Positions 1,462 to 53,859 of a DNA stretch of 64,000 nucleotides are shown one piece after another. The stretch comes from an uncultured Hyphomicrobiales bacterium (lineage in GTDB: Bacteria; Bacteroidota; Ignavibacteria; Kapaibacteriales; UBA2268): contig CAZSWR010000003.1 of assembly GCA_964610885.1 (NCBI GenBank), forward strand, positions 29,770 to 93,769, given 5' to 3'. Position 1 is the stretch's first letter; each line of letters begins with the position of its first letter. The notes under the pieces were generated by a model that saw nothing but the letters and a program-made list of their open reading frames with translations, did not search any database and was not told the DNA's origin. A program made the position numbers and the translations under genes.

Positions 1462-2040
1462 TTATTTCTTGCCAGCCAAGAACTGCTCGTATTGTTTGCG
1501 GTATTCGGCAGCGTATTTGATGTAATTGGGAGGCGTATTCACGATTCGTTCGATTTCCTTGTCCGTCAGTTCGCGAATCACCTTCCCGGGCACCCCGGCG
1601 ACGAGCGAACGCTCCGGCACCTCGAAGCCCTCGCGGACGACAGCGCCGGCCGCAATCAAGCAGTATGGATTGACGATCGCCCCGTCCAGTACGCTGGCGC
1701 CGATGCCGATCAGCGAGAATTGCTTGATCGTGGCGCCGTGCAGCGAGACCGAATGCGCAATCGAGACGTCGTTCTCGATCACGAGCGGGTACTTGCCGTT
1801 GGTTACGTGGAGCATCGAAAGGTCTTGGATATTCGACCTGTCGCCGATTTTGATATAATGCACGTCCCCGCGGATAACCGTGTTGTACCAAACGGAAACT
1901 TGTTCGCCGATTTCCACATCGCCGATGATTCGCACTCCCTCGCAAAGGAATGCCGATGGATGTATCTTGGGCATGATGCCTTTATATGCCAGTATCGATG
2001 CGCCGTTTCCGGTTTCGCACCTAATTTCTTGAGTATTCAT
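1462..2040 (-). CDS. gamma-carbonic-anhydrase-like hexapeptide-repeat protein (YrdA/PaaY family)
   Basis: 192 aa with left-handed beta-helix hexapeptide repeats (IGDVEIGEQVSVWYNTVIRGD, VSIAHSVSLHGATI, IGIGASVLDGAIV). ATG start at 2040. Confidence 0.85.
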   Translation of the reverse strand: MNTQEIRCETGNGASILAYKGIMPKIHPSAFLCEGVRIIGDVEIGEQVSVWYNTVIRGDVHYIKIGDRSNIQDLSMLHVTNGKYPLVIENDVSIAHSVSLHGATIKQFSLIGIGASVLDGAIVNPYCLIAAGAVVREGFEVPERSLVAGVPGKVIRELTDKEIERIVNTPPNYIKYAAEYRKQYEQFLAGKK

Positions 2041-2097
2041 ACTTCTTTTCCAAAGCCAATCGTTAAAAAAACACTAACTTTTCGAAATAATTGCAAA

Positions 2098-2877
2098 TTA
2101 TTTCTTCACATATTTTCCGGCCGAAAACGAGTAATGTTCGGTCTTGTTCATATCGATCAATTTTTGTGATTCGCTGTCGTATTGGTTTCCGGTGGTTTTA
2201 ATCACAAGGTCGTACCAACCGTCCTGCGTGCGTTCGAATTTGTAATCGGATTTGAACTCCCATTCCTGGTCGTCTGTGCCGCCGTCGTCGTTTGCCGTGA
2301 TGAAGTGAATCGCTTCGGTGAAGGCATTTTTGTAGTACGTGTACACCAAGGCGTACTCGGCATTTGTTTCGTCCACGCCGGTGAAAATGATACCGAATTC
2401 GCCATTTGTCCCAAGTTCGATCGTCTTGACCGGATCGCATGTGCCCTCCGAGCCGATTTCGCTAAGGTAGTAGTCCTTGGATTCCAATCGCCATTTCCCG
2501 TCGGTTTTAGCAAAGACGAAGCACGAGACGAAAGGCGCGCAATCGCTTTCCTTCGTGTTCGATGCCGTAACGAGAACGAGCTTCTCTGTGCCGGCCGATT
2601 TTATTGTCTCGAACAATTCAATCGAAGTGTAGAGTTTGCTTTTCCCGGCGAATTTGGCAACTTCCTTTTCGTCCTTGAGGAAATCGGCTTGCCATTCGGT
2701 CGATTCTTTCTTGCCGAAAGTGCCGAAAAACAGCTTCATGGCAACTTCCTCTGTGGGCTTCTCGGCCGAAACGAAATCTTCCGGTTTGGCGAATTGAGAC
2801 AGGTCCACGTCCTGCTTCTTCGAACACGAAACAATGGCGAGCGCCAGCATTAAATATAAGAAAAGGTATCTTTTCAT
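2098..2877 (-). CDS. hypothetical lipoprotein
   Basis: 259 aa with a lipobox-type signal peptide (MKRYLFLYLMLALAIVSC|SKK). No recognisable catalytic motif. Confidence 0.7.
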   Translation of the reverse strand: MKRYLFLYLMLALAIVSCSKKQDVDLSQFAKPEDFVSAEKPTEEVAMKLFFGTFGKKESTEWQADFLKDEKEVAKFAGKSKLYTSIELFETIKSAGTEKLVLVTASNTKESDCAPFVSCFVFAKTDGKWRLESKDYYLSEIGSEGTCDPVKTIELGTNGEFGIIFTGVDETNAEYALVYTYYKNAFTEAIHFITANDDGGTDDQEWEFKSDYKFERTQDGWYDLVIKTTGNQYDSESQKLIDMNKTEHYSFSAGKYVKK

Positions 2878-2936
2878 TTCAAACGTCCTTAATCAATATC
2901 ATCAATTTATCAAATGTTCCTTGTCGTAGCCGCCAC

Positions 2937-4169
2937 CTACCATGGCAGAAGTTTGTTCAGGAATGTGTCGTCCACCTTGGCCATGAATAGCTTCTCGGAG
3001 CCGCCGAAGACGAACGATCCGTCCACGTCCACTTGCGGACTGAGCAGCAAAGCATCGCCGGAGGTCAGCGTTACTGTGTTCCCAAGCGTCCCGTCCCGCT
3101 TGACGGTATAAAGGCCGGCGACGCCACCTTTGGAGGCAACGAGCGCGAGCTTCTTTTTGCTGATGTAGAGCGGCGAGTGCGCCGTCATTTCCAGATACAA
3201 TTTCCAGTTTTCTTTCCCATCCTTATCGAAGGAAAACACTCCCGAAAGTGGATTGGCAGTGGTGGTGCTGACGCCGACGCAATAAACGTTTTGCTTGGAG
3301 TCCGCCGAGACGAATTTGGGCATCACGTCGATCGAGGAGCGCCACAGCTGGCGGCCGTCCGTGGAATACGAGGCCACGAAGCTGCGTTTCTCGCGTTGGG
3401 CGTCCAATTGCGAACCGCACACAAAGAGCCTGTCCTCCGATAGTATCGCGCCGCTGAGCAACCGAAGGCCGTCGGTGGCCCATTTCTGGAGAATTTGGCC
3501 GGCGGGGGACACCTTCGCGATCGTATCGGATTGAGAAAAGTCGTTGCATGTATAGCCCACGTAGAGATTCCCCTTCTCGTCGGCCGGGAAGCTTTCGGAA
3601 ATCTCTTTGCCGAGCGAGAGCGTCCAGACGTTCGATCCGGCGAAAGACACCTTCTGGAGCAATCCGTCGGTGTTTCCCACGACGATGCCGTCCTCGGTCT
3701 TCAGCAAGTTCCCAAAGAGAGTCATCGGCGACGGGTCGCAGAGCTTGTATTTCCAATTGAGTTTGCCGATTGGGCTGACCGAATAAAGGTATCCGTTCGA
3801 TAGTACGACATAGATATTATTGTTGTCGTCCGAACACATTTTCCCAATCGGGAAGGCAGCAGTATCGAGCCGTATTTCCCAATTGGTTTCGTATAGCTTG
3901 CCAATTGCCACAATCGAAGCGCGCTCGGTCGCGAAGGCGATCATCGTGTCGCAGACGACCAAGGGCGGAATCTGCGCACCGCTTACGTCGGTGGTTGCGA
4001 ATTGGTACGGAAAGAGTTTGTAGCAATAGAAGGTGCCACAGGATTCGTAATTGTTCTCGCGTGTGGCTCCGCCGTCTGTGTTACCATGGAAATCCATGCG
4101 CGAATTCCCGCAAGACGAAACGAGGGCCATGCAAAGGAAGGCAGCAATAATGTAAGTATATTTTTTCAT
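2937..4169 (-). CDS. PQQ-like/BamB-like beta-propeller lipoprotein
   Basis: 410 aa with signal peptide plus Cys (AAFLCMALVSSC|GN). Repeated ~40-aa blades (NIYVVLSNGYLYSV, GNLYVG, DRLFVCGS, QNVYCVG, GSFVFGG). Confidence 0.65.
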   Translation of the reverse strand: MKKYTYIIAAFLCMALVSSCGNSRMDFHGNTDGGATRENNYESCGTFYCYKLFPYQFATTDVSGAQIPPLVVCDTMIAFATERASIVAIGKLYETNWEIRLDTAAFPIGKMCSDDNNNIYVVLSNGYLYSVSPIGKLNWKYKLCDPSPMTLFGNLLKTEDGIVVGNTDGLLQKVSFAGSNVWTLSLGKEISESFPADEKGNLYVGYTCNDFSQSDTIAKVSPAGQILQKWATDGLRLLSGAILSEDRLFVCGSQLDAQREKRSFVASYSTDGRQLWRSSIDVMPKFVSADSKQNVYCVGVSTTTANPLSGVFSFDKDGKENWKLYLEMTAHSPLYISKKKLALVASKGGVAGLYTVKRDGTLGNTVTLTSGDALLLSPQVDVDGSFVFGGSEKLFMAKVDDTFLNKLLPW

Positions 4170-4276
4170 AGTAACATTGCTTGGTTCAATTGTTTAACAA
4201 ATTCCAATTGCGAATAAAACTTTTCTTGTCAATTTTCAATTAATTGGGGCCATTTTGTCCGCCAGCTGTAGCCTGA

Positions 4277-5362
4277 TTATTTGTTGCGGAACAGCCGAAG
4301 GCCGCAAAATGCGCTCGAAGTGTCCTCGGCCAGCCTGGCGGGCAGCCGGCAAGCGAGCATCCCTTCGGAATACGAGCCTCCGCGGCTAACCCTGCGGCCG
4401 CCAGTGGCCGGGCCTTGCGGGTCCGTGGCGGGCGAGGCCGCATAGTAAGTCTCCGAATACCAATCCCAGCAATACTCGCGCACATTCCCGTGCACGTCGT
4501 ACAAACCGAATGCGTTTGCCGCTTTCTGGCCGCCGCGCTTCAGCAATCCGCCCGAATTGCCCGAATACCAGCCCATATCGGCAAGCAAGCCCGAGCCGGC
4601 GAAATCCTCGGCGGAACCAGCTCTGGCGACGTATTCCCATTCGGCCTCTGTGGGCAGCCGGAATCCGTTGGCCGTGTCGATGAATTCAACTTTCGACCCA
4701 TTTATTTCGTAGCAAGTGTCGTAACCGTATATCTTCGAGATGGCATTGCAGAACCTGATCGCGTCCGCCCAAGCAATGGAAGCAACGGGGAGCGATTCGT
4801 CGTATTGCGCCACGGGTTTGGTGCGCATCACGCGCCACCACAGTCCTTGGGGCACTTCGAGCGCGCTCGCGAAAAATGGCTTGCTGATCGATACGCTATG
4901 GACGGGCATTTCGCCGGCCAGCCCTGCTTTGCTGCCCATCTGGAAGCTGCCAGCGGGGATTTCGACCATCGCGAACGGAGGCAAAGGGATTATTTCGAGG
5001 AAGCGTTTCTTCGTGGTGTCGCGCCCGATAACGATGCAGACGCTGTCTGATGCGATTGTGTCCGCAAGAGCGACGCGGACGATTGCGTCCGTCCAAGTGC
5101 GGCACTGCGCCGAAGGAATCGGAACCGAACCAACCAAAACGAAGCTCGAATCGGAACGAAGCCCGAAACCAGTTCCATATATGACTAATTCATCGCCACG
5201 GACCAATGTGTCTGCGCCCAATCCATAAATTTCCAATCCGCCGGGAGTTTGCAGCGTTTCGTCGTTGCATCCCGAGGACAGCCACGCGAGAAGGGCGAAA
5301 GCCAATGTGGCGACAATATTTCTTAAAATACTCATTTTGCTTTTTGTAAATGGACTTTTCAA
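4277..5362 (-). CDS. formylglycine-generating-enzyme (SUMF1/FGE-sulfatase) domain lipoprotein with an N-terminal IPT/TIG-like domain
   Basis: 361 aa with lipobox LSSGC|ND. FGE-family motifs: VEIPAGSFQMGS, RLPTEAEWEYVARAG, VHGNVREYCWDWY, RVSRGGSY. Confidence 0.8.
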   Translation of the reverse strand: MKSPFTKSKMSILRNIVATLAFALLAWLSSGCNDETLQTPGGLEIYGLGADTLVRGDELVIYGTGFGLRSDSSFVLVGSVPIPSAQCRTWTDAIVRVALADTIASDSVCIVIGRDTTKKRFLEIIPLPPFAMVEIPAGSFQMGSKAGLAGEMPVHSVSISKPFFASALEVPQGLWWRVMRTKPVAQYDESLPVASIAWADAIRFCNAISKIYGYDTCYEINGSKVEFIDTANGFRLPTEAEWEYVARAGSAEDFAGSGLLADMGWYSGNSGGLLKRGGQKAANAFGLYDVHGNVREYCWDWYSETYYAASPATDPQGPATGGRRVSRGGSYSEGMLACRLPARLAEDTSSAFCGLRLFRNK

Positions 5363-5691
5363 TTAAATGGAAACATTATAACGTTTTCAAACGAAGCCCT
5401 GCCGCTTCTTTTGAAATACAGCTCCGGTGCGGATTTTCAAACCAATATTTTGATGGGCCGAACCCGCCGCCCACAAGCTTTTTGCGAATTAATTCCAGCT
5501 TGGAAACTGTACCAAAGTTGAAATTAAACCAACTTCAAATATAAAAAAAAAAGCAATAGGGCGCTCTCGGCCGGCGCCACTTAATCTTATGAGCTTCAAT
5601 ATCGTTATGAAACAAGGCAAAAGGCAGACATGGAAACACGAGCAAAACGCAATGTTTTTGATAATGTGATGATTAGCAGATGTGGCGATTA

Positions 5692-30099: not shown

Positions 30100-31002
30100 T
30101 TATTTAACAACAGTGAAAGAACCTGTTAGGAATGAATAGTTCGGAGATACTCCCAATCTAATTCTATAAGTATAGACTCCATTGGGTAATTCAGAGATAT
30201 TCGCGTTTTAAGTACTGTTTAATGAAGAAATGCTGAAAGAATTTGAAATTAAAAGCACATTATATGTATTGTAAATTTCTAGAACACACGTACCTTCGTA
30301 CGATGAAAAGATGTTGAAATTAATTGTTTCTGATGCTGGATTTGGTGAGATACGAACAGTATTTGCATTAAGAGTTGTTGAATCCTGAGGGATAGGATTC
30401 GGATTATTTCCACCACTAGCGGCCTCCATTGCCGAAAGTGTTGTGACTTCTCTTGTTAAAGTTCCGGCGTTATAAATAATTCCACCTGTTGTTGGTGAGA
30501 TAATATCATGATAATGGGGTGGTTCATTAAAGTCTATGGTCATAGGATTATCTGTTGTGCCATTGCCAACGTACATTGGTGCTTCAGAATCGGCCACTGG
30601 GCCACAGGCCATATCAAGGCATTGTTCCTGACAGGGCCTGTTATCACTTGAAATAGCAATATCATCTTGTAAAGTAAATGCACTTCTACTTTTGTTTAAT
30701 TGTTTTCTAACTTTAATTCTGTGTTTACAACATTTTAGCCAACAACTCTGTATATTTGATGTTATCATTCCATCGCTGACATCGTTGTATCTTTCGGTAA
30801 TCGTATTGTTATCATTATCCAACCTTTGATAAAAATAATATGTCAGTCTCAAATCATTTGAAGAATTGTATCCGACACAGCTAGGTGTAGCAATTTCATA
30901 ACTATAAGTAGCACCAATATTCCAAGGATAACGAATAAAAGAATATGCTGACAAAGTAAGCAAATCAACAGCCCTTCTAATATTAAATCTAATCGAAGAC
31001 AT
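30100..31002 (-). pseudogene. decayed T9SS cargo gene whose CTD is split by an in-frame TAA and which has no signal peptide
   Basis: The ORF ends ...ISPNPASETINFNIF...VLEIYNTYNVLLISNSFSISSLNST then TAA (30208-30210). The same frame continues NANISELPNGVYTYRIRLGVSPNYSFLTGSFTVVK to TAA at 30100-30102, which is the missing second half of a T9SS CTD. AT-rich. Confidence 0.7.
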
Positions 31003-32220: not shown

Positions 32221-33249
32221 TTATCTTTCGTATTCCCCGTTGTAGAATCGGAGGAATTCTGTGATGTTTCTTTCGCTGCCCACGAAAAATGGGGTCTTCT
32301 GGTGAATTGAATCGGGCTTGATTTCGAGAATTCTCTGCTTGCCGGTCGTGGCCCTGCCTCCGGCCTGCTCGATGATGAACGAAAGGGGATTCGCTTCGTA
32401 AATAAGCCGAATTTTTCCGTCAGGTTGCGCTTCGTCCGCCGGATAGAGATATATTCCACCGTAATGGAGAATACGGTGCACGTCGCCAACGGCTGTTGCG
32501 ATATATCGCATATAATACGGCCTGGTTTTGTCCTCCGAAGGTGTTTTGATCCAATTAAGGTAGTTGCGGACTCGTTCGCTCCAGTTGAGTACGTTGCCTT
32601 CGTTGCACGAATAATGATTTCCCCAGATGGGCATGATAAGGTTCTTTTTGGTAAGAAGAAATTCGCCGATTGTGGGGTCGAAAGTGAAAACGTTGACGCC
32701 GTTCCCCGTGGTGTAAGCAAAAAGGGTGCTGCTGCCATAGAGGGCGTATCCGGCGGCCAACTGTTTGTATCCGGGCTGTAGCACGTCTTCGCGGGTGCCG
32801 TCGTTGTTAGCCGACGGATCCAGCCGTTCGTAGATCGAGAAAATGCTGCCGATGGTGATGTTCACGTCGATATTCGTGGAGCCGTCCACCGGGTCGAATA
32901 GCAGGACATATTTCCCGAGTGTGTATTTTTTGGGTATGCGAATTATATCGGTGCTCTCCTCGGAGGCCATAGCGCAGAAGTGCCCGCCATAGCTCATGGT
33001 TCGGATAATGGCTTCGTTGGCGTATTCGTCCAGCCGGCGCAGTCTGTCCCCCGAATAGTTAAAGCTGTCGGTCATGCCGAGTATGTCGTTCAGTCCGGCT
33101 CGGCGCACTTCCTTTGCTATCAAACGGATTGCGAAGGCCAGGTCTGCCAGGATGAGTGTGAATTCGCCTGTTGCCTCGGGGTGCACGGCTTGCTCTTCGG
33201 CCAGGTGGCGGCCGATCGTTACCAATTGCGATATATTATTCAATGCCAT
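32221..33249 (-). CDS. fbp: class 1 fructose-1,6-bisphosphatase
   Basis: 342 aa with LFDPVDGSTNID metal site, GSSTLFAY and GGIYLYPAD. Confidence 0.93.
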   Translation of the reverse strand: MALNNISQLVTIGRHLAEEQAVHPEATGEFTLILADLAFAIRLIAKEVRRAGLNDILGMTDSFNYSGDRLRRLDEYANEAIIRTMSYGGHFCAMASEESTDIIRIPKKYTLGKYVLLFDPVDGSTNIDVNITIGSIFSIYERLDPSANNDGTREDVLQPGYKQLAAGYALYGSSTLFAYTTGNGVNVFTFDPTIGEFLLTKKNLIMPIWGNHYSCNEGNVLNWSERVRNYLNWIKTPSEDKTRPYYMRYIATAVGDVHRILHYGGIYLYPADEAQPDGKIRLIYEANPLSFIIEQAGGRATTGKQRILEIKPDSIHQKTPFFVGSERNITEFLRFYNGEYER

Positions 33250-33268
33250 AAGTCACCATTTTAATATA

Positions 33269-33302
33269 AATGCCGCCGAAAAGGTGCAAAATCGGCGGCA
33301 TT
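33269..33302 (-). terminator. strong hairpin between the Mor-like gene and fbp; either a terminator or a leader structure
   Basis: AATGCCGCCGA / TCGGCGGCATT stem with a 12-nt loop and T-rich runs on both strands. It sits only about 20 nt upstream of the fbp ATG. Confidence 0.5.
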
Positions 33303-33328
33303 ATTTTCTTCCATCGAATTATTGTATG

Positions 33329-33598
33329 TCAATAAATCTTTCTTTCTCGCTTTATGCGTCTCAAATACTGTGCCGAAACATTCAGATTGGCCGCAATTTG
33401 ACTGACGGATGTGTCCCGATTTTCGCGCAGGTAGCGTTCCACAAATTTGTCGAATCGGGAAATCCGCGGGAAATAAATGCTTACGCCCGCAAATTCGCGT
33501 AGCAGCCCGCGGACCACCTCCATGCCGAGCGCGTCGGCCACCATACGCAGGTCCTCCGTCAGCTCGTCCGGCCTCAAGGCCTCGAATACATTTTTCAT
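33329..33598 (-). CDS. Mor-like (phage Mu middle-operon-regulator family) small transcriptional activator
   Basis: 89 aa. The layout matches short Mor-family proteins: L..DLRMVADALGMEVVRGLLREFAGVSIYFPRIS followed by a C-terminal HTH (SVSQIAANLNVSAQYLRRIKRE). ATGA overlap with the upstream ORF. Confidence 0.6.
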   Translation of the reverse strand: MKNVFEALRPDELTEDLRMVADALGMEVVRGLLREFAGVSIYFPRISRFDKFVERYLRENRDTSVSQIAANLNVSAQYLRRIKRERKIY

Positions 33599-33906
33599 CG
33601 CCCAGCGCCCTCCTCTGCGAAGTCAGGCATACAATACGGCTCGAGGGCCGACCAATTCCTTTCGGAAAACTCTCCGACTATGAACGCCAAGTCCGCGTGG
33701 TCATCCTCGGAAATAATGCTCTGAGCGGCGCCGAGCGCCAGCACACAATCGACAGCCCTCACGAGCGAATCGACATCCGCGATCGCCTCGACAGCCGATT
33801 GCAATGCCTCCTGGCACCTGCCAATGGCCAACGCCCGCCTCCGGGCCAATTGCGACTGCTCCGCAAGGCCTCCGGCCCCAATCCGATTCCTAATATTAAC
33901 TGACAT
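33595..33906 (-). CDS. hypothetical acidic 103-aa protein, first gene of the leftward operon
   Basis: Its ATG at 33906 is the first start codon downstream of the leftward promoter, and its stop overlaps the next ATG (ATGA). No recognisable domain. A 164-aa ORF on the opposite strand overlaps it. Confidence 0.5.
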   Translation of the reverse strand: MSVNIRNRIGAGGLAEQSQLARRRALAIGRCQEALQSAVEAIADVDSLVRAVDCVLALGAAQSIISEDDHADLAFIVGEFSERNWSALEPYCMPDFAEEGAGR

Positions 33907-33942
33907 TTTGCAAATTCCCTTATTTGTTCGAAAAAAAGTTAC

Positions 33943-33971
33943 TTGACAAAAAGCTGAACATTTGTTATATT
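33943..33971 (+). promoter_or_regulatory. sigma70-type promoter P(right): TTGACA-N17-TATATT
   Basis: TTGACA at 33943-33948, a 17-nt spacer, then TATATT at 33966-33971. It points toward the HTH/S24 genes. Confidence 0.6.
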
Positions 33972-33978
33972 GGAAATG

Positions 33979-34054
33979 GTAAATATTACAATATTGAAAA
34001 GTAATATTTACTCTAATATAAGTAAATAATACGACAATGTCAAGTAATATTTAC
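33979..34054. promoter_or_regulatory. array of four 11-bp GTAA-N3-TTAC palindromic operator-like sites
   Basis: GTAAATATTAC at 33979-33989, GTAATATTTAC at 34001-34011, GTAAATAATAC at 34022-34032 and GTAATATTTAC at 34044-34054. Centre-to-centre spacing is 22, 21 and 22 bp. Confidence 0.65.
34015..34043 (-). promoter_or_regulatory. sigma70-type promoter P(left): TTGACA-N17-TATATT on the minus strand
   Basis: The minus strand reads GTAAATATTAC-TTGACA-ttgtcgtattatttact-TATATT-aga-GTAAATATTAC. The -35 is at 34043-34038 and the -10 at 34020-34015. Confidence 0.6.
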
Positions 34055-34127
34055 GAATATCGAAAATATATTTTTTGATGTATGGCTGGCTTTTGGGAAG
34101 GCACCAAACTCAAACTATACCGGCACA

Positions 34128-34550
34128 ATGTTACTAACACGAAGGGAATTCCAAATGGAAGAAATCAACAAGGCCATCGGCAAGCGATTGCAGGATGTGC
34201 GCAGGATCTACAACAACGGCTACCGTTGCTCTGCCGAACAGTTGGCCGCCGAGATTGGCGAATCCGTGGCAAATATTCGGAACTACGAATGCGGAAAGGC
34301 CGGCATTCCCAATCGTGTATTGTTGGCTCTGTACCACAAAGGAATTAATCCGATATACTTGCTTTCTGGCGAGGGTGAAGTCCACGCGCCAAACGCTGCC
34401 GGCGCTGCGCTCGGGTCGAGGACAATTGAGAACAAATTGAACAATGCGCAGTCTGTCTATCGGATCGAATCGCCCGCTCGGCCCGAAGGTATCGGGACGG
34501 CGGCTGCCGGTTCCATCGAGGATGAAATCAAGAGCAAGGGCAGAAAATGA
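34128..34550 (+). CDS. XRE-family helix-turn-helix regulator (stand-alone HTH with a long tail)
   Basis: HTH region: IGKRLQDVRRIYNNGYRCSAEQLAAEIGESVANIRNYECGKAGIP. The tail contains Ala-Gly dipeptides (NAAGAAL, TAAAGS). An alternative ATG lies at 34155. The stop overlaps the next ATG (ATGA). Confidence 0.8.
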   Translation: MLLTRREFQMEEINKAIGKRLQDVRRIYNNGYRCSAEQLAAEIGESVANIRNYECGKAGIPNRVLLALYHKGINPIYLLSGEGEVHAPNAAGAALGSRTIENKLNNAQSVYRIESPARPEGIGTAAAGSIEDEIKSKGRK

Positions 34551-35140
34551 ACTATTACGAAATGACGGACACAGAGCTGCGGAGGAAAATCAAGCGTTAC
34601 TACATGGACGAGCACTACGGGCTGCGGGACCGCGCCTCGGCGCTCGCCGAATTATTGTCCGAGAGTTCGCGGCGGCTCGAAAGGTCGTATTCGGGAACCA
34701 TTTCGATTTTCGATAGCGCAATTAACGACGCCGTGAAGGAAATCGGCGGACTGGACGCCGCTGCGTTTTCTCGCCGAGCATCCGCGAGGCCGGGCAATAC
34801 GGGCGCTCCTGGCATTGCGGCCGTCGAGCACCATGGCCCGGTACCGAAGGATTACGTGGTCTATCGCATAAGTGGCGATTCGATGATCGGCGCGGGAATT
34901 TCGGACGGGGACAGCGTCGTAGTCGAGCTTGCCAGCCCCGAGCTTTCTATCAATAGCTTTGACGGGAAAATTGTGGTCGCCGAGGTGTGCGGAGTGTCGT
35001 TCGTCAAAAGGCTCTGCTCCTGCGGCAATTCTTCGTTGCTACTGAAGTCCGAGAACCCGAAATATCCACCGTACGAGTTGAAAACATCCGATTCGCTGAA
35101 ACTGATCGGCGAAGTGAAGCAGATTATTCATAATATTTAA
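34547..35140 (+). CDS. S24 (LexA/UmuD/cI-type) peptidase-domain protein lacking an HTH, with an unknown ~95-aa N-domain
   Basis: 197 aa with the catalytic-type Ser in YRISGDS112MIGAGI and Lys in SFVK154RL, plus an S24 beta-core (GDSVVVEL, GKIVVAEV, LLLKSENPKY). Confidence 0.75.
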   Translation: MNYYEMTDTELRRKIKRYYMDEHYGLRDRASALAELLSESSRRLERSYSGTISIFDSAINDAVKEIGGLDAAAFSRRASARPGNTGAPGIAAVEHHGPVPKDYVVYRISGDSMIGAGISDGDSVVVELASPELSINSFDGKIVVAEVCGVSFVKRLCSCGNSSLLLKSENPKYPPYELKTSDSLKLIGEVKQIIHNI

Positions 35141-35370
35141 ATTCATACTTCTTGTCCGATTTGCATCCTTAAAATAAAATAATCTAAGAGTAATCCGTTA
35201 TTAGTGTGGATTCTGGGCGCACTTGGAGCGAAATGAATCAGGGCGCGAAGTGTAAATTTATCATTAAATTTATTTAATACTTTGCACTTACGGCAGCCCG
35301 CATTTTTTTGGCGCACGGATATTTCTTAATTTTGTAACGATTGATTAGTAACATACAGGAAAAATGATTT

Positions 35371-36306
35371 ATGAGCAAAGAGAAATTTATGGATTCCCGC
35401 TTCGGGCAATACTTCTTTATCGCCATCGGTTCCGCGATCATGGCGTTGGGAATCGGCGTATTCATGGTCGATGCAAAAGTGGTCCCTGGAGGGGTTAGCG
35501 GCCTCTCGATTGCCGTGCACTACCTGACTGGCGGAAATCTGCCCGTCGGTATGCTGATGTGGGTAATGAACATACCTCTATATATATGGGGATTGAAAGA
35601 ACTCGGTAAGACTTTTGGAGTTCGGACATTCTATGCGTTCACACTCAACTCGGTCTTTATCGATTTGTTCCGTGGCGACATCCCCGGGTTTAGATTCATC
35701 AGGCTTCAGGACATGACCGCAGTTCAGGAATTGCTACAGCACGATTTCTTGTTCTTCGTCCTGATCGGTGCCGTGCTGCTGGGCGTTGGCCTTGGAATCA
35801 TATTTAAATTCCGCGGTACGACCGCCGGATCGGATATTGTGGCCTCGATCATGCAGAAACGCGCCGGCTTCAAGCCCGGCCAGGCAATCATGATCATCGA
35901 CTTCTTCGTTATCACGTTCGCCGGCATCGTCATCGGCATGAACGATATTTCGCCGGAACGTTCGGCAATGACGCTGACTTTCTACGCTTTCCTTTCGTTG
36001 TACCTGTCGAGCAAAATTATCGATGTCATCATCGACGGCTTCGACTATGCCCGCGTGGCGTATATCATTAGCGAAAAAAGCGACGACATTGGCAATCTGA
36101 TCCTCCACGACATGGGCCGCGGCGCCACAGCGTACAAGACTCGTGGACTCTACACAAACCAAGACCGCGAAGTGCTCATGGTCGTCTGCTCCGTCAAGGA
36201 AGTAAGCACGCTCACGGAAGAAATCCGCGCGATCGACCCGAATGCGTTCATCATCATAAGCAACGTACACGAGGTCATGGGCAAGGGCTTCCGCCGCAGG
36301 ATATAA
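35371..36306 (+). CDS. YitT-family membrane protein (DUF2179 C-domain)
   Basis: 311 aa, multi-TM N-region (FFIAIGSAIMALGIGVFMV...) and C-terminal DUF2179-like region (NAFIIISNVHEVMGKGF). Confidence 0.75.
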   Translation: MSKEKFMDSRFGQYFFIAIGSAIMALGIGVFMVDAKVVPGGVSGLSIAVHYLTGGNLPVGMLMWVMNIPLYIWGLKELGKTFGVRTFYAFTLNSVFIDLFRGDIPGFRFIRLQDMTAVQELLQHDFLFFVLIGAVLLGVGLGIIFKFRGTTAGSDIVASIMQKRAGFKPGQAIMIIDFFVITFAGIVIGMNDISPERSAMTLTFYAFLSLYLSSKIIDVIIDGFDYARVAYIISEKSDDIGNLILHDMGRGATAYKTRGLYTNQDREVLMVVCSVKEVSTLTEEIRAIDPNAFIIISNVHEVMGKGFRRRI

Positions 36307-45490: not shown

Positions 45491-47560
45491 ATGAACAGGT
45501 TGTACTCAGCTTTTTTGCTTTGTTTAGTGCTTGGATTCTTCTTTTCCAACGCGAAGGCAGACGTATGGGAGAAGTATTGCTCGTCGCCAGAGGGCGCGGT
45601 AATAGTGGGAATCCAGGGTGACGCCGCAAATGGACTCGGTGTGGTAACGTACTCCAAAACTTTTATCCAAAGCGCGACGGACGCCGTCTGGTCTTTTGCG
45701 GGCAACGCTGACCTCGACGAAGGGAAACCGTACTTTTACGTCGGAGATGGGTTTATGTATTCGCTCTTCGAACAAAAATTGAACCAGGTCAGTTTATTTA
45801 CAAAAGCGACTGTTAGCGTTGACTTGCCCCAGGGCGTTTCGACCTCCGACGTGAAACGCATCGCAGCGAAGGGCGCGAAATGCGCCATTTGGTGCGCGGG
45901 CGATGCTTCGTCGATTCGCTACATTTATGATTATTCCACAAAGACATGGTCCGAACCGAAAACCTATGACTATAATTACTACGATGTATATGTGAGCCAG
46001 GGCGGTATCGTTTGGAGGAACTCATATGGCGAATTTGGGTTCGACCATCGGAAATCGACCGATCTGGGCGAGTCATGGTCGGATTTATTCACGAATGTAT
46101 CCAACGATATTTTCGTTGACCACCTTGGAAATCAATACACTTACTTCGAAGGGGTTGCTACCAAGATTGACAATTCCGGCAACAAAATCGAAGATTTCCC
46201 ATTCTTGCAGAACGAGACTCCGGAATCCATTGAAACCTTCCGGGATTCCAAATTACTTGTTCAATACTCAAACAGCATCGTTGTCATCGATATCGCCTCG
46301 AAGACGCCTATCGATACAATAGAATTCGATCCACTAACCGACGGCAGATTAGTTGGTTTGGCTATTGTTGGCAAAGATTTGTACGTTGGGACAAGCAACA
46401 GCGTTTTTATATACTATGATTTAGCTACGCTACCTGTGATCGACAAATCTGGGCTGAATGCGGCGATGGGTTTGTACCTTACTCCGTACAAAGGGAAATT
46501 GCTTATGAGGTCGGTGGTTGGCTTGTATAGCATCGACCAATTGGGCGCAGTGAAACTTTCGGGTGCTATGTCCAATATGGAGAATCCTTCGGGCAGGGAT
46601 ATGGTCGTTACCTCGGACAGTAAGATTTATCTTATCGACAGAATGTTACGCAAACTCATGTGCTCCACGAATGACGGACAAAACTGGCAAGAGATTGTCC
46701 TTCCTTCCGGCGACGTTGCTGATTATATTACAGAAATCCAACCCGTTGGTCTCGTCGTCGGAACTGCAACCGGCAACAAAATCTATTCAATAGCGTCCGG
46801 TTCGACCACACCAAAGCTAATCGCAACAATTAACTATCCGGAGAATTTGGAATTCCAATTTATAAAATTGTTCGGGTCCACCGTTGTTGTAGTTACTGAC
46901 CAATTAATCTTCAGATCGATTGATATGGGCTCAAATTGGACCGGTACGCCGTCCACCGTATTCTCCACCGTGTCCGACATGTTCTCGATGGGCGAAGGAA
47001 TCATATGGTTGGCATCCCAAGGTAAATTCTACGAATCGACAGACGATGGCGAAAGCTGGACAGAAATTTCCGAGGAGTATAATTTCCTCTATCCGCTCCA
47101 ATTGCCCGACAAGAGTATTATGTTTGCCCATGCAACCACATACGATACATATATCATCCATCCGGACAAATCAATAACCAAGTTCGCATATCCGGCGCCG
47201 GATAAATTTATTTCCTCGCTTTGCCTCTTCGAGGGATACGTTTACGCAACAACAATCGGCGGCGAAATCTATAGATTTCCGTATTCGGTCCTTCCCGCCG
47301 AGGAGCAACCCGCATGGGAGCAAGTCTCGGCCTTCCCCGTTCCGGCATCGGAATTGGTTACAATCTCGCTTGGCGGCGCTTCGGCCGGCGATGCAATAAT
47401 CGAAGTCTTCAATTCCTTGGGCGAAAAGCAAAACGTCAGATTCGCAATCGAGGGCAACGAAGCCAAACTGAACGTTGCCAGCCTGCCCCAAGGCGTTTAC
47501 ACAGCAAGAATAATGAACCAGCCCAATGCAACAACGACAAAATTCGTGATTGCAAGGTAA
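45491..47560 (+). CDS. secreted BNR/Asp-box (sortilin/Ycf48-like) beta-propeller protein with a T9SS C-terminal domain
   Basis: Signal peptide present. Asp-boxes: STDLGESW, STNDGQNW, SIDMGSNW, STDDGESW. CTD: FPVPASELVTISL...LPQGVYTARIMNQPNATTTKFVIAR. Confidence 0.85.
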   Translation: MNRLYSAFLLCLVLGFFFSNAKADVWEKYCSSPEGAVIVGIQGDAANGLGVVTYSKTFIQSATDAVWSFAGNADLDEGKPYFYVGDGFMYSLFEQKLNQVSLFTKATVSVDLPQGVSTSDVKRIAAKGAKCAIWCAGDASSIRYIYDYSTKTWSEPKTYDYNYYDVYVSQGGIVWRNSYGEFGFDHRKSTDLGESWSDLFTNVSNDIFVDHLGNQYTYFEGVATKIDNSGNKIEDFPFLQNETPESIETFRDSKLLVQYSNSIVVIDIASKTPIDTIEFDPLTDGRLVGLAIVGKDLYVGTSNSVFIYYDLATLPVIDKSGLNAAMGLYLTPYKGKLLMRSVVGLYSIDQLGAVKLSGAMSNMENPSGRDMVVTSDSKIYLIDRMLRKLMCSTNDGQNWQEIVLPSGDVADYITEIQPVGLVVGTATGNKIYSIASGSTTPKLIATINYPENLEFQFIKLFGSTVVVVTDQLIFRSIDMGSNWTGTPSTVFSTVSDMFSMGEGIIWLASQGKFYESTDDGESWTEISEEYNFLYPLQLPDKSIMFAHATTYDTYIIHPDKSITKFAYPAPDKFISSLCLFEGYVYATTIGGEIYRFPYSVLPAEEQPAWEQVSAFPVPASELVTISLGGASAGDAIIEVFNSLGEKQNVRFAIEGNEAKLNVASLPQGVYTARIMNQPNATTTKFVIAR

Positions 47561-48743: not shown

Positions 48744-49168
48744 CCTTTTTGTGAATTACCAAAAAATTGAAACCTCTGCGGAACGATTTCCGAAGTGTGC
48801 TTTGGGGGCGCTTGCCAATGGCCTGTAGAACTCTTGGGCCTGATGCGAGCAAATCCACTATTTCAATTCTTGGCCGGAAACCCTTTCGATTCTTTGCTGC
48901 GAGGCGCGAGTGATTAGATTTCCAATTCATATACTTAAACAAAGATAGTAAAATGATTTGAAAAAAAAAATAAATAATAAATTATATTATTTATTTCTCA
49001 AAAAAAATGTTTCATAGGACACATCATTTGCCTCCGATTTGCAATTTTGGAATATGGCTGCCCAGGAAATTTCGAATAACGCCGAGCCAATTGGCTTTAA
49101 TAATCTGCTCTATCTTGTCGCACTATAACGCTTTATGGTGGTTTTATAGCCCAAGTCCTCTTCCAAAC

Positions 49169-49236
49169 ACTCATCCGATAGTTAAAGAATTATGAGAAAA
49201 TTTCGAATGACAATTTACCGGAGTCATTGGATGAGT
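49169..49236. repeat. family 1 copy (diverged)
   Basis: actcatccgatag...gagtcattggatgagt. Confidence 0.7.
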
Positions 49237-49351
49237 CCCCAAGCAAAATATTGCGAGCAAATTTTATCTAACTTAGCAGATATGCGGGATCAACCATAGA
49301 ATTCGATGAGAGTTAGAAAAGAGTAAATATCGTTCAGCATCTTCTGCGAAT

Positions 49352-49570
49352 CGTAGGGGCACGGCACGCCGTGCACTGGTAGCCGGTTAGAATAGAACGG
49401 GATTGTATTATACCCACATGTGTATTTCATTATGTCCTATATAAATCATATTCTCGAACGGGTTTGGAACCCGCCCCTACACCTCTTTCTACTTGCTACT
49501 TTTACCTTTTTACCTGCAACTATTTTCACTACATCATCACATCTTCACATCAGCTTATCAACTAATCTTC
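49352..49570 (+). repeat. family 7 copy (no left arm)
   Basis: Module A is cgtaggggcacggcacgccgtgcactg (49352-49378). Module B is tatataaatcatattctcgaacgggtttggaacccgcccctaca (49438-49481). The right arm contains ctacttgctacttttacc...catcatcacatcttcacatc. Confidence 0.8.
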
Positions 49571-49635
49571 TGGGCACCTTTTACTTTTTCTTTTGTATAT
49601 TGCTTGTTGATTGGTTTGTCAGATTTGGATAATAT

Positions 49636-50937
49636 ATGAAGGTACCGATAGCGTTAGTCGATTGCAATAATTTCTATGCCTCTTGCGAAAGGGTTTTCAA
49701 CCCAAAGCTCGCAGGCAAGCCAATTATTGTGCTTTCGAACAACGACGGAATGATCGTTGCCCGCTCGAACGAAGCCAAAGCTCTCGGTATTAAAATGGGC
49801 GAGCCACTCTTCAAAGTGAAGAGAATCGTCGATCAGTACGGCGTTTTCGTCTTTAGCTCGAACTACACACTCTACGGCGATATGTCCATGCGCGTGATGC
49901 GGACGCTCGAGCGGTTCGCGCCCGAAGTCGAGATCTATTCAATCGACGAAGCCTTCCTGAACTTCCACGGCGTGGAGCGCAAAGGGCTTACCGAATATTG
50001 CCGCAAAATTCGCGAGACAGTCTTTCAGTGGACGGGGATTCCCGTTTCTATCGGTGTCGCCGAAACGAAAACTCTGGCCAAACTGGCCAACCGATACGCA
50101 AAAAAGCATCCCGAAACCGGTGGCGTTTTGAACTTGATCGACTATGAGAATATCGATTCATATTTGGAGCAAACCGATACTGCGGACATTTGGGGCATCG
50201 GCCGCCAATACACAAAGGCTCTGTGGGCGCGGGGCATCACCAATGCGCTCGAATTCGCCCACGCGAACAGCAAATGGGTGCGAAAGCGCTGCACCGTCAT
50301 GGGACTGCGCACCCAGCAGGAGCTGCTCGGCCGGCCTTGCATATCGATAGACCACGCACCGAGGCCGAAAAAGTCGATCGTATGCTCGCGATCTTTCGGG
50401 GCGGTTACGTCGGACAAGCAACACATCAAAGAAGCTGTTGCATACTTCGCATCGCTTGCCGCACAGAAACTGCGCAAACAGAAATCAGGCGCCACGCTCC
50501 TGACCGTCTTCCTGCGTACAAACCCGTTCCGGGACGCACCGCAATACCACAACGGCGCGCTCGTGCAGCTCCCCGTGCCGACGGATTCGACATCGGAACT
50601 GATAAAATATGCCGAACAGGGCGTCGAACAGATATTCCGCGAGGGTTTCGAATACCACAAAGTGGGTGTACTGCTGGCCGGATTCGTGCCGATCGACCGA
50701 TCGCAGCTTCAGATATTCGAACCGGAGGACAGGGCACGCATGGCCGTCGTGAGCGAAACAATGGACAAAATCAACAAAGATTTCGGCGCAAATACGGTTT
50801 TCTTCGCTGCCGCCGGCACTCGCAGGAATTGGAGCATGAAGCGCGAAAAGAAATCCCCGCACTACACCACCGACTGGGACGACCTGCCGCAAGTCAAAGC
50901 CGGCGAACAATCGGGCGAATCCGCTACTGGCAAGTAG
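49636..50937 (+). CDS. umuC: Y-family DNA polymerase, UmuC-like subunit
   Basis: The N-terminus [50 protein letters not shown] closely parallels the E. coli UmuC N-terminus. YSIDEAF is the catalytic acidic motif. Confidence 0.85.
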
Positions 50938-51027: not shown

Positions 51028-53859
51028 ATGAAAAAGATTATTATACTCGTATTGTCGTTAGTTATTGCAAGCTCTGCCGTGCTTTCGGCCAAGGATTTTC
51101 GCATCATCGAAACCAAACAGGGCACCTCGATGGTAGCCGGCCACGCAATGGTGCGTCTGAAAGAAATGCCTTCTGGCGGTTCGGCCCAAAGCGCTTCGTG
51201 GGACTTTACCATCGTAGAGCCGCTGCTTTCGGCCACGGAAGCCACAGAGGCCAAGCGCACGCTGCGCCCGGCTGTCCTTGCTGCCAATCAATCCGAATTA
51301 TCGATGCTTGAGGATCGGCTGACTCGGACCTTCGTAGTGGAATTCGACCCCAAAGAAACGCCTGATGAGTTCTGCCACAGAATCGTGGCCGATTGCCCCG
51401 ACGTCGAATATGCCGAGCCGTGGTATGTGGCCGAAATTCAGTACAGGCCAAATGATAACTTGGTGGATTTCCAGGCTATGCTCGCCAACTGCAAATTCTT
51501 CGAGGCTTGGGACATCTACAAAGGCGATCCGTCTATCGTCATTGGCATCAGCGACAATGGCATTGACCAATCGCACGAAGACCTTGCGCCAAATATTGCA
51601 ATCAATACGGCAGACCCAGTGGACAGCATCGATAACGACGGCAACGGCTTCATTGATGACTACAACGGCTTCAATTTCGCCAACAGTGTGGACCATCAGG
51701 GCTACAACAATACATACGTGGAGAACGACCACGGCACAATGACCTCCGGAATCGCCGCCGCCAAGACTAATAACACAAAAGGCATCGCCGGGACAGGCTG
51801 TTTCTGCTCATTTTTCCCGATGAAAACAGCAGAATACGACTATCCGAAACGCATCGTTTACGGATACAAATCGCTTCTGTATTCAGCGATTCGCCATTTC
51901 AAAGTAGTTAGCTGCAGTTGGGGATTCCCGCTTAAGTATTCGCGTTTCAACCAAGAAATCGTGCGCTACGTGGCCGCAAACGATGTGGCTATTGTGGTCG
52001 CCGGCGGAAATGTCCGCTCAGTCATCCTTCAGACTAACTATCCGGCCGGATACACAGACTTGCTCTCCGTCGGCGAGGTGGACCAATCGGATATTATCTC
52101 CGGCAGCACCACACTCGGAGCGCATATCAACGTTATGGCTCCCGGCATTGGGGACTATTATACAACTTTCGAAAATGGATATTTGCAAGAAACGATTGGC
52201 GGCACTTCTGTGGCGACTCCGGTCGTGGCCGGATTGGTTGCGCTCGTCCGCGGCAAGAATCCGACTCTCAATGCCCTTCAATCCTTGGAAATTGTGCGCC
52301 AGGCAACCGACGACATCCGCTCGGTCAATGTGCCCTATGCGGACATTGTCCCGGGCAGGATCAACGCACAGCGCGCCCTCCAGACCGACCCGAACACGAT
52401 TCCTGGGCTTCGCCCACAGAGCATGCAATTCATCGGGCGCAGTGGCAATCCGGTCGTCCGCTACGACGTCGGGGACACCGTCAGGCTTCGCTTCCAGATG
52501 AAGAACCATTTGGCCGCGGCCAAGAATGTGCGTTTCGTGCTTTCTTTTGCTCAGGACGCGAAATCGTCGCTCCAAGCGGTCGAATCCACCGTCGTGGTGC
52601 CGAGTATTGCAGCTTCGAGTTTGTTCGATCTGGGCGATTTCAGCTTCGTCCTCAAGAACAGGAGCAGCGACAAGGCTTTCATCCGAGTGGATATTTACGG
52701 CGAAAACGGCTACAAAGATTTCTTCTTGATGTCGATTTATCCATACAACGAAATGCGGACGCTTGCGAACAGCACGGTAATGGCTTCGTTCGGCGACCGT
52801 GGCAATTTCGGCTACAGCCCTGATTTGTACGAATACGTGGGCGAAGGATTCTCGTATAAAAACATTGGAACCACGCTGGACAAAGGCGGACTATTCGTAA
52901 CGGCCGATTATACCCAAGCAGTTTCGTCACTCTTCAGCGAAAGAGACGACAACAACGATTTCGCGATCGAAAAGCCTTTCCTGGAGCCTTACGAGAACCA
53001 AGCCATATTCACAGACGCCAATGCCTACGAAGAATTCGCAATCGGCGTGCGCGTGCACCAAGACATTAGCATCGGCAGCGATGGCAAGGGCTACGTCAAG
53101 ATTATTAATCAAATCCAAAACACAGGCATAACCAGAAACCTGCTTGCTGCGTCGTACTATGTGGACTTCGACATGTCAAATGTGGATTCCAACCGCACAT
53201 CTCTTTTCCCCGAGGCCATTCCCGAATCGTATGCTGCAATGCCCGCCTCGGCCGAGCTTATTGAATCATCCGATCCGGATTGGCCATTCGTGGGCGTGGC
53301 TGCATTTGCAGGCAACGAACATCCGGCCCGCGCATTCACGGCCGGCATAGACCGGCGCACAAATTTCTCGATCGATCAATTGTGCGACATCGTGGCCACT
53401 GGCAGCAATACCCAATCGGAACTGTGGCGCGACGTAGCAGTAGCGGCCGGCGTTGAGTTCTCCGGCACAATCGAGAAAGACAGCCAGCGCACCTGCGCGG
53501 TTTGTTTCGCAGCGGCTGCGACCAAATCCGAACTGGCGGCTTTACTTCAGGATTGCATTTTGTCCGGGACTTATATTTCTGCGCGAGAGGACGCCCCGAG
53601 CGCACAAGTGGACTTTGCCGTGCTGCCCCAACCGGCGCAAGCGCATTCATCGCTCGTGATTACGGGCACTGAGGGCGGGCCGGCAAGGCTCGAAGTAATC
53701 GACATGCTCGGGAATTCGGCTATCGTGAAGAATGACTTGCAACTCGGCAAAGAATACTCAAACGTCCCATTGGACCTTTCCTCGCTCGCCCCTGGTGTTT
53801 ATATTTTGAAACTTACGATAAATGGTAATTCATTAGTTAAAAAAATAATATTACAATAA
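51028..53859 (+). CDS. S8 (subtilisin-family) serine peptidase with a T9SS C-terminal domain
   Basis: Catalytic triad motifs IGISDNGID, DHGTMTSG and GGTSVATPVVAG. CTD: VLPQPAQAHSSLVI...LAPGVYILKLTINGNSLVKKIILQ. Confidence 0.9.
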   Translation: MKKIIILVLSLVIASSAVLSAKDFRIIETKQGTSMVAGHAMVRLKEMPSGGSAQSASWDFTIVEPLLSATEATEAKRTLRPAVLAANQSELSMLEDRLTRTFVVEFDPKETPDEFCHRIVADCPDVEYAEPWYVAEIQYRPNDNLVDFQAMLANCKFFEAWDIYKGDPSIVIGISDNGIDQSHEDLAPNIAINTADPVDSIDNDGNGFIDDYNGFNFANSVDHQGYNNTYVENDHGTMTSGIAAAKTNNTKGIAGTGCFCSFFPMKTAEYDYPKRIVYGYKSLLYSAIRHFKVVSCSWGFPLKYSRFNQEIVRYVAANDVAIVVAGGNVRSVILQTNYPAGYTDLLSVGEVDQSDIISGSTTLGAHINVMAPGIGDYYTTFENGYLQETIGGTSVATPVVAGLVALVRGKNPTLNALQSLEIVRQATDDIRSVNVPYADIVPGRINAQRALQTDPNTIPGLRPQSMQFIGRSGNPVVRYDVGDTVRLRFQMKNHLAAAKNVRFVLSFAQDAKSSLQAVESTVVVPSIAASSLFDLGDFSFVLKNRSSDKAFIRVDIYGENGYKDFFLMSIYPYNEMRTLANSTVMASFGDRGNFGYSPDLYEYVGEGFSYKNIGTTLDKGGLFVTADYTQAVSSLFSERDDNNDFAIEKPFLEPYENQAIFTDANAYEEFAIGVRVHQDISIGSDGKGYVKIINQIQNTGITRNLLAASYYVDFDMSNVDSNRTSLFPEAIPESYAAMPASAELIESSDPDWPFVGVAAFAGNEHPARAFTAGIDRRTNFSIDQLCDIVATGSNTQSELWRDVAVAAGVEFSGTIEKDSQRTCAVCFAAAATKSELAALLQDCILSGTYISAREDAPSAQVDFAVLPQPAQAHSSLVITGTEGGPARLEVIDMLGNSAIVKNDLQLGKEYSNVPLDLSSLAPGVYILKLTINGNSLVKKIILQ

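Follow-up and report, generated by a model that had tools for sequence, protein, structure and literature searches.

What kind of element separates two divergent two-gene operons on the chromosome of an uncultured member of the Kapaibacteriales, and what does it control? The element lies at positions 33943–34054 of the window, by which we mean the whole 64,000-nucleotide (64-kb) stretch of contig CAZSWR010000003.1 (GenBank assembly GCA_964610885.1) that was analysed. The operon on its right encodes an XRE-type helix-turn-helix (HTH) protein and an S24 serine peptidase; that on its left, a Mor-like activator preceded by a small acidic protein (Table 1). An earlier note, made from the letters alone, had described two promoters facing each other and interleaved with palindromes. 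Having compared the element with related loci, we consider it probable that it is the promoter–operator region of a self-contained, chromosomal and autoregulated repressor switch with promoter competition, in which the HTH protein would bind the palindromes (dyads) and a cut by the S24 protein would be the likeliest trigger.

Both strands carry TTGACA and TATATT separated by 17 nt, precisely where the earlier note had placed them, forming a rightward candidate promoter, P_R (33943–33973, plus strand), and a leftward candidate, P_L (34043–34013, minus strand). Each matches a promoter consensus at 11 of 12 positions, and the two are the best sites of the scan within 33000–35500. The two upstream boxes lie in one and the same 10-mer, TTACTTGACA, as had also been observed; it is present exactly twice in the window, once at each promoter. 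From the positions of the boxes, transcription is predicted to start at ~33978 on the plus strand and at ~34008 on the minus strand, ~30 bp apart. At the level of sequence, the locus thus has two operons on opposite strands with face-to-face promoters between them.

The primary sigma factor of Bacteroidetes recognizes TTTG at −33 and TAnnTTTG at −7 and does not use the sigma-70 code (PMC7366714). Read in this code, the boxes of the window become cTTG-N20-TATATTGG for P_R and cTTG-N20-TATATTAG for P_L, each matching at five of six positions, and both promoters show the expected pairing of a TAnnTTTG-type box with a TTTG-type box ~19–21 nt upstream. Across the family of related loci described below, the consensus is, by alignment, of this Bacteroidota type (TTTG/TAnnTTTG). 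The earlier note had warned that the housekeeping sigma factor of the host might follow a Bacteroidetes code and that this would count against the promoters. The first half of the warning was well placed; the second was not, since a change of code leaves the boxes, and where they lie, unaltered, and with them the face-to-face reading: they can be read in either code.

Four dyads of the form GTAA-N3-TTAC, O1 to O4, are interleaved with these boxes at start-to-start spacings of 22, 21 and 22 bp, in agreement with the 21–22-bp register originally proposed. Three of the four palindromes claimed are exact; the remaining one, O3, carries a single mismatch and is imperfect. The placement read from the sequence also holds, with O1 at the predicted start of P_R and the other three covering P_L, at its start (O2), inside its spacer (O3) and against its upstream box (O4). 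When the intergenic region (33907–34154, 71% A+T) was shuffled 50,000 times with its dinucleotides preserved, three exact sites never arose, and two sites arose in only 2 shuffles. Elsewhere in the window there is no exact GTAA-N3-TTAC beyond O1, O2 and O4, and the scan for further clusters of the motif that the note had advised gave, within these 64 kb, none outside the control region.

We also considered a fifth site, AAAAAAGTTAC at 33932–33942, upstream of the P_R upstream box, and rejected it; it has only the TTAC half, lies 47 bp from O1 and so out of register, and is conserved only in the close clade. Its position beside the P_R upstream box mirrors that of O4, which abuts the P_L box. 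One related locus (L012) carries an extra perfect GTAATATTTAC at 3785–3795, 16 bp upstream of the start codon of its Mor-like gene and distant from the main array. O1 and O2 are exact reverse complements in most loci (centre ATA versus TAT), so that an identical hairpin, with an 11-bp stem and an 11-nt loop, would open each of the two overlapping leaders. This shared 5′ hairpin is probably a by-product, and could stabilize the 5′ ends.

Conservation provides the strongest evidence against a chance origin of the dyads. Using the HTH protein as query, a single-sequence search returned 5 homologous proteins and an exhaustive profile search returned 134, mostly of 115–165 amino acids. Where the sources name the organisms, HTH and S24 relatives come from Ignavibacteria, Kapabacteria/Kapaibacteriota and metagenome-assembled genomes of the Bacteroidetes/Chlorobi group. 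We stacked 20 loci on O3, comprising the window and 19 related loci from metagenomes (4 close, 15 distant), across which the HTH proteins diverge down to ~35–45% identity. The stack yields the consensus TTTG ... TAnnTTTG – O1 – 11 nt – O2 – CAAAnATA – O3 – 8 nt – CAA – O4. Dyads with at most one mismatch are found at the O1, O2, O3 and O4 registers in 14, 15, 17 and 7 of the 20 loci, respectively, against 0–1 at each of eight control registers, making O3 the best-conserved register of the family. Half-sites are conserved in sequence, whereas the centre triplet varies but is restricted to A/T in 154 of 159 cases (97%); the spacers between dyads drift in sequence and not in length, and the 22-bp register of O1 to O3 is kept. 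In this comparison the dyads behave like protein operators. A strict A/T centre recalls the indirect readout of the 434 and P22 operators.

The four close orthologues, whose HTH proteins are 62–87% identical and which keep all four genes, preserve the array almost unchanged. O1 and O2 are invariant in the 5 orthologous loci, O3 is a perfect GTAA-N3-TTAC in four orthologous loci, and at O3 and O4 both GTAA and TTAC are retained while the centre triplet varies among A/T bases. TTGACA and TATATT on the plus strand and TATATT on the minus strand (AATATA as read on the plus strand) are likewise invariant in all 5. Overall, the operator–promoter core is near-invariant, and the flanks and spacer sequences drift. 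The P_L upstream box has become TTGCAT in L006 and L007, the two most distant of the close orthologues, so that the TTG alone is kept; L006 also has a perfect P_R box, TATATTTG.

The promoter boxes hold their positions relative to the operators in the 15 distant loci as well. The −7 box of P_L begins 2 nt left of O3 in every one of them, with a 6/6 match to TAnnTTTG in 11, and the distance from this box up to its TTG is exactly 20 nt in 12 loci and 19 nt in another 2; the corresponding CAA, at +19 to +21 from O3, forms a consensus column of the 20-locus stack. For P_R, a 6/6 TAnnTTTG lies upstream of O1 in 14 of the 15, begins 56–58 bp left of O3 (~12–14 bp upstream of O1) in 10, and is preceded by TTG or TTTG at 19–20 nt in 9. 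Moreover, the last operator of L007 and L010 is only ~30 nt from the HTH start codon, which places the rightward promoter upstream of the array and thus face to face with P_L. The inward orientation of the promoters put forward in the earlier note is supported by this geometry, and its structural claims as a set survive the comparison with related loci.

Which protein reads the dyads? The best candidate is the HTH protein, the presumed binder, on the basis of a fold close to operator-binding repressors and a DNA-binding domain homologous to that of S24-linked repressors. Its AlphaFold2 model contains a five-helix domain, with residues 1–75 at a predicted local distance difference test (pLDDT) score >90. 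The nearest structure found by Foldseek is P22 c2 (target TM-score 0.84, root-mean-square deviation 1.5 Å over 68 residues), with 434 Cro and C-proteins also among the nearest; the Foldseek E-values are weak because the query includes a disordered tail. Profile comparison with hhalign showed homology to the DNA-binding domain of single-chain HTH–S24 repressors (99.6%, E = 2.9e-24), and single-chain relatives with the same HTH signature continue with IAAGEP or SAGxG and then an S24 core. Orthologues begin with MEEIN or MDDLN, favouring the ATG at 34155 (131 amino acids, MEEIN) over that at 34128; a 140-amino-acid form, P0303 (sources NCBI and Logan), matches the open reading frame from ATG 34128.

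The tail of the HTH protein carries AAAG at residues 116–119, within a family motif [AV]AAG[DKR]I. Among 60 family members, A118 is invariant and G119 is >90% conserved; outside the motif the tail is hypervariable, and AlphaFold2 predicts it to be flexible. Shorter members have tails resembling a LexA site (PVYKVAAGRI, IPIISVAAGKI).

The S24 start codon overlaps the HTH stop codon by 4 nt (ATGA), and the two genes are translationally coupled. Ser112 (GDSM) and Lys154 (VKR), the Ser–Lys dyad, are invariant in 14 S24 partners of 20–78% identity. We detected no HTH or other DNA-binding domain in the S24 partner, and the aligned partners contain no conserved Ala-Gly in their own chain; the only conserved Ala-Gly in the HTH/S24 pair is that of the HTH tail. 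The AlphaFold2 model has a core at residues 101–197 (pLDDT ~90) and a disordered linker at 77–98. Its N-terminus is helical over ~80 amino acids and unrelated to LexA/CI, the extension before the core amounting to ~100 amino acids that are absent from UmuD. The best solved relatives of the core are UmuD′, and the NCBIfam relative is the autoproteolytic subunit of polymerase V (Pol V). LexA and CI repressors are single polypeptides; here two genes share the functions, and they are split in 13 other loci too.

Conservation of a catalytic dyad that has no substrate in its own chain favours a substrate in trans, for which the AAG tail of the HTH protein is the obvious candidate. This suggests that HTH protein and S24 partner form a two-chain repressor of LexA/CI type that would be cleaved in trans, although the specific step, a cut of the HTH tail by the S24 partner, is one that we think clearly less probable than its absence. 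Our literature search for a split HTH/S24 system found no description of one.

How such a switch might work follows from the arrangement of its parts. P_R would transcribe the HTH and S24 genes from a ~177-nt leader that holds all four operators, and P_L the genes for the small acidic protein and the Mor-like activator. The two leaders would overlap by ~30 nt, with each transcript reading through the opposing promoter. With starts ~30 bp apart, the downstream footprints of the open complexes (to ~+20) share DNA, so the promoters should exclude each other at initiation. HTH dimers would bind the 11-bp GTAA-(A/T)3-TTAC dyads cooperatively; a period of two helical turns (22 bp) lets all dyads face the same side of the helix, as cooperative binding would favour. 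Occupied O2, O3 and O4 would cover P_L at its start, spacer and upstream box and silence the activator operon, while O1 at the start of P_R would give weaker negative autoregulation. With three sites over P_L and one over P_R, a single repressor should therefore shut down the Mor-like operon firmly but its own only mildly. Once the HTH protein is lost, P_L would be released, allowing the Mor-like protein to activate targets elsewhere. The likeliest trigger would be a cut by the S24 partner in the AAG tail of the HTH protein, as in the RecA-stimulated cleavage of LexA and CI, which takes place within a single chain.

Because the window holds no further operator copy and the flanking genes vary between distant loci, the output is probably the Mor-like activator acting elsewhere. 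This protein, the presumed output of the switch, resembles Pfam Mor (PF08765) at E = 2e-4 and 21.8 bits, below the curated cut-off of 24.9, and the PHROG 836 family ‘late transcriptional activator’ at E = 5.6e-7. Nine of its 15 orthologues match PF08765 at E ≤ 1e-3, the best at 1.9e-8. Using phmmer, we found the HTH gene in 22 loci (E ≤ 1e-13); in 13 it is followed immediately by the S24 gene, and in 15 a Mor-like gene diverges from it. Six further HTH-matching loci had no Mor match, at least three of them having too little upstream sequence. PADLOC returned no meaningful defence-system match.

The first leftward gene encodes a 103-amino-acid acidic protein, possibly a modulator or an anti-repressor, for which Pfam, PHROG, NCBIfam and PADLOC gave no match. 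Small leftward genes at other loci share with it the motif ADLxF[IL]xxE[YF] and an acidic tail, can barely be aligned between clades, and are missing from seven loci. The cassette is flanked by genes for FBPase and a YitT-family membrane protein, both of which are also retained in L004; this shared synteny indicates vertical inheritance with no recent insertion. Several secreted proteins of the window, including an S8 subtilase, have C-terminal sorting domains of the type IX secretion system (T9SS; Por), which fits a host of the Bacteroidota/FCB group; with the names of the HTH and S24 relatives, this makes the Ignavibacteria/Kapabacteria branch of that group the most likely origin. Among genome contigs, the HTH profile gave no match and FBPase only one of 45%, from Nitrospirae. 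No Rfam family and no tRNA was found in the window.

Table 1 Positions of the predicted control elements, the genes around them and their counterparts in related loci (coordinates refer to the window unless a locus is named)
Feature	Position	Strand	Remarks
P_R upstream box, TTGACA	33943–33948	+	conserved core is the TTG of cTTG; from sequence and promoter scan
P_R −10/−7 box, TATATT (33966–33971)	33966–33973	+	TATATTGG read as TAnnTTTG (5/6); from sequence and scan
O1, GTAAATATTAC	33979–33989		exact GTAA-N3-TTAC; at predicted +1 of P_R
O2, GTAATATTTAC	34001–34011		exact; at predicted +1 of P_L, ~+23 of P_R
P_L −10/−7 box, TATATTAG	34013–34020	−	TATATT at 34020–34015; from sequence and scan
O3, GTAAATAATAC	34022–34032		one mismatch; inside P_L spacer
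P_L upstream box, TTGACA (34043–34038)	34038–34043	−	conserved core is TTG; from sequence and scan
O4, GTAATATTTAC	34044–34054		exact; abuts P_L upstream box, ~−36 to −46 of P_L
FBPase	32221–33249	−	flanks cassette
Mor-like activator, 89 amino acids	33329–33598	−	Pfam Mor, PHROG 836; start overlaps stop of the 103-amino-acid gene by 4 nt
103-amino-acid acidic protein	33595–33906	−	first gene of leftward operon; open reading frame; orthologues in L004, L006 and L007
XRE/Cro-C1-type HTH protein, 131 amino acids	34155–34550	+	weak Pfam HTH_3 match; AlphaFold2 fold
S24 serine peptidase, 197 amino acids	34547–35140	+	Pfam Peptidase_S24, E = 2.3e-16, profile positions 32–115 only
YitT-family membrane protein	35371–36306	+	flanks cassette
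UmuC-type Y-family polymerase	49636–50937		57% identical to that of L032
Stretch upstream of umuC-like gene	48744–49635		~890 bp; no convincing open reading frame; no GTAA-N3-TTAC site
Secreted proteins with T9SS sorting domain	30208–31002; 45491–47560; 51028–53859		includes S8 subtilase
Small leftward gene, L014	3488–3838
Small leftward gene, L015	3554–3880
Small leftward gene, L017	2033–2350
Small leftward gene, L023	2023–2352
Small leftward gene, L024	601–858
L032 (IMG/VR contig)	1–5555		small-protein and Mor-like genes; next to them, in convergent orientation, a block with a umuC-like gene and genes for Mu-type portal, CHAP and cement proteins

Several observations weigh against a repressor switch of this kind. 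At the operators, the half-site centres of an 11-bp dyad are ~7–8 bp apart, which is short for a dimer of the Cro/C1 type; O4, although retained in close orthologues, is poorly kept family-wide (7 of 20 loci with at most one mismatch) and degenerate in more than half; and with operator copies absent from the rest of the window, the HTH protein shows no wider regulon here. Nor can the phyletic pattern name the binder, since the Mor-like protein also has an HTH and was found in 15 loci, wherever the upstream sequence was long enough. At the proposed cleavage site, the hhalign alignment to single-chain repressors ends before the tail and so does not extend the homology to the AAG and the LexA cleavage site, and the likeness is partial, as the residues that follow are D/K-I in place of the x-P of canonical sites. 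AAAD or AADD replaces AAG in some members, including that of L012, which keeps its S24 partner, and L015 has an HTH gene with no adjacent S24 gene.

The alternative that survives best places the S24 protein outside the switch, as a UmuD′-like subunit for the UmuC-type polymerase encoded in the same window and merely co-expressed with its regulator. The relatives of the S24 core noted above fit this idea, as does the lack of a umuD neighbour for the window’s umuC-like gene; at L032, only 0.3 kb separates such a gene from the Mor side of the module. UmuD itself is marked by a Cys/Ala-Gly site in its N-terminal arm and by a gene beside umuC. Here both arm and site are lacking, and only the S24 core resembles UmuD′, preceded by a ~100-amino-acid extension unlike UmuD. 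The 2.5–4-kb flanks read at the other loci contain no umuC, and 14 diverged partners keep Ser and Lys invariant with no conserved cleavage site in the same chain, which points to a substrate in trans. We regard this alternative as unlikely, and the two roles are in any case mutually compatible.

The polymerase gene itself has no adjoining umuD and lies 14.5 kb from the S24 gene. L032, in which the Mor-like gene has a umuC-like neighbour, breaks off within the operator, where O1 begins. The orphan umuC-like gene and this neighbour hint at DNA damage. Within the window, no SOS gene is preceded by GTAA-N3-TTAC, the umuC-like gene included. The fullest version of the two-chain model, in which the DNA-binding chain carries the AAG as a C-terminal cleavage-site strand, a separate S24 protein cuts it in trans on DNA damage, and the freed Mor-like activator turns on a damage regulon that possibly includes the orphan umuC-like polymerase, is offered as a tentative proposal, more likely to prove wrong than right.

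We next weighed the Mor-like protein as the binder of the dyads, alone or together with the small acidic protein, in which case the array would serve the leftward operon for autoregulation or activation. It has a C-terminal HTH and is present in 15 loci, and O4, at ~−36 to −46 of P_L, is roughly where Mor of phage Mu sits on its target promoter. Three of the four sites, on the other hand, overlap the core or start of P_L, which are repressing positions, and it is the HTH family that has operator-binding repressors as nearest structures and a domain homologous to S24-linked repressors. Binding by the Mor-like protein thus seems improbable, and we retain the HTH protein as candidate.

It is very unlikely that the promoter hexamers are chance matches in A+T-rich DNA and that the real promoters, back-to-back or single, lie elsewhere in the intergenic region. 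The promoter scan did give 7 matches against 3.9 in shuffles, and Bacteroidota do not use the sigma-70 code (PMC7366714); nevertheless, both boxes hold their offsets from the operators across 20 loci, converging on TTTG/TAnnTTTG, and L007 and L010 have no room for another rightward promoter between array and start codon. Least credible of all, to the point that we set it aside, is a feature acting at the RNA level, with the operators as 5′-terminal hairpins or sense/antisense duplexes in the overlapping leaders: the P_R leader does fold strongly (−39.6 kcal/mol, z = −3.8) and the reverse complementarity of O1 and O2 does give both transcripts an 11-bp 5′ hairpin in most loci, but this pairing is automatic among repeated near-identical palindromes, the strong P_R fold arising because the operators are complementary to each other, whereas the P_L leader is no more stable than shuffles (z = −0.3), the RNAalifold consensus stops at −8.6 kcal/mol and its covariation term (+0.97) is unfavourable, half-sites are kept as sequence with departures left uncompensated, and no Rfam family matches in the window.

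If the S24 partner does cut the AAG tail of the HTH protein, substrate and enzyme of LexA/CI-type regulation can reside on separate chains, and the long-studied choice between intra- and intermolecular S24 cleavage becomes directly testable in a natural system. The locus would then represent a repressor of LexA/CI type made of two chains, for which we know of no earlier description. It would also point to a DNA-damage response that runs from repressor to activator in a little-studied branch of the Bacteroidota/FCB group; neither Ignavibacteria nor Kapabacteria appear in the survey of the SOS response in Bacteroidetes, from 2021, that we searched.

Among known systems, the pair shares with LexA and lambda CI an XRE/CI-type HTH, an S24 Ser–Lys core, a VAAG-like motif, here a possible cleavage site, between the DNA-binding and protease parts, and palindromic operators, with autoregulation proposed here. 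It differs in that the DNA-binding part with its AAG and the protease core are two separate, coupled proteins. Repressor–protease pairs of a comparable split logic are ImmR/ImmA of ICEBs1, DdrO/IrrE of Deinococcus and CapH/CapP of the cyclic-oligonucleotide-based antiphage signalling system (CBASS), in which an XRE-type repressor is cleaved on DNA damage by an adjacent protease and a divergent promoter is regulated. The proteases ImmA, IrrE and CapP are Zn metallopeptidases of the COG2856/M78 type, in contrast to the S24 serine peptidase found here, for which cleavage is only proposed.

The operator also differs from those of the non-canonical LexA of Bacteroidetes, which recognizes CTAA-N5-TTAG or GGA-N5-TCC (variant TTAC-N5-GTAA) ahead of its own gene and of SOS genes (PMC8565304), whereas the site here is GTAA-N3-TTAC. 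FddR of Francisella, an S24 repressor co-opted from a phage, controls its own expression and that of divergently transcribed genes (PMC13148647). The two systems have in common a self-contained chromosomal S24-linked repressor with its own operator and divergent genes, outside a prophage; FddR is a single chain and binds GTG-N11-CAC, and the part of its published account consulted here makes no mention of face-to-face promoters, a multi-site 22-bp array or a Mor-like output. By analogy, the nearest concept would be a divergent S24 unit of the FddR type, and the nearest split logic that of the repressor/metalloprotease pairs. Convergent promoters between divergently encoded genes are also found in the Ecl18kI/SsoII restriction–modification systems, with one regulator site between them (PMC2760811); the regulator there is the N-terminal domain of the methyltransferase and the operator is single.

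Finally, P2-like phages (P2 Pe/Pc, 186 pR/pL) have face-to-face promoters 40–60 bp apart with overlapping transcripts, and interference is part of their switch (PMC7498355). The locus resembles them in its facing promoters between divergent operons, its predicted overlapping transcripts and its dyads over and between the starts. The earlier note had called the arrangement miniaturized, a fair word given ~30 bp between predicted starts against 40–60 bp in the phages. Further differences are a single array of identical dyads in a 22-bp register where P2 and 186 have separate CI and Apl/Cox sites, promoters of the Bacteroidota type, and a repressed operon that encodes a Mor-like activator in place of a lytic operon. 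We considered and rejected an origin as a prophage or P2-like immunity region, given the housekeeping flanks FBPase and YitT, the same synteny in L004, and the lack of phage genes around the cassette; a phage genome collection gave no match to the HTH or Mor-like protein, and IMG/VR gave no relative of the HTH family and a single match to the Mor-like protein, L032. As predicted here, then, the layout works like a P2/186 switch yet lies outside that phage family. Face-to-face promoter switches are few, and the layout adds to them a compact, non-phage case, whose 20 natural sequence variants could serve to test models of promoter competition and cooperative repression with a Bacteroidota-type sigma factor.

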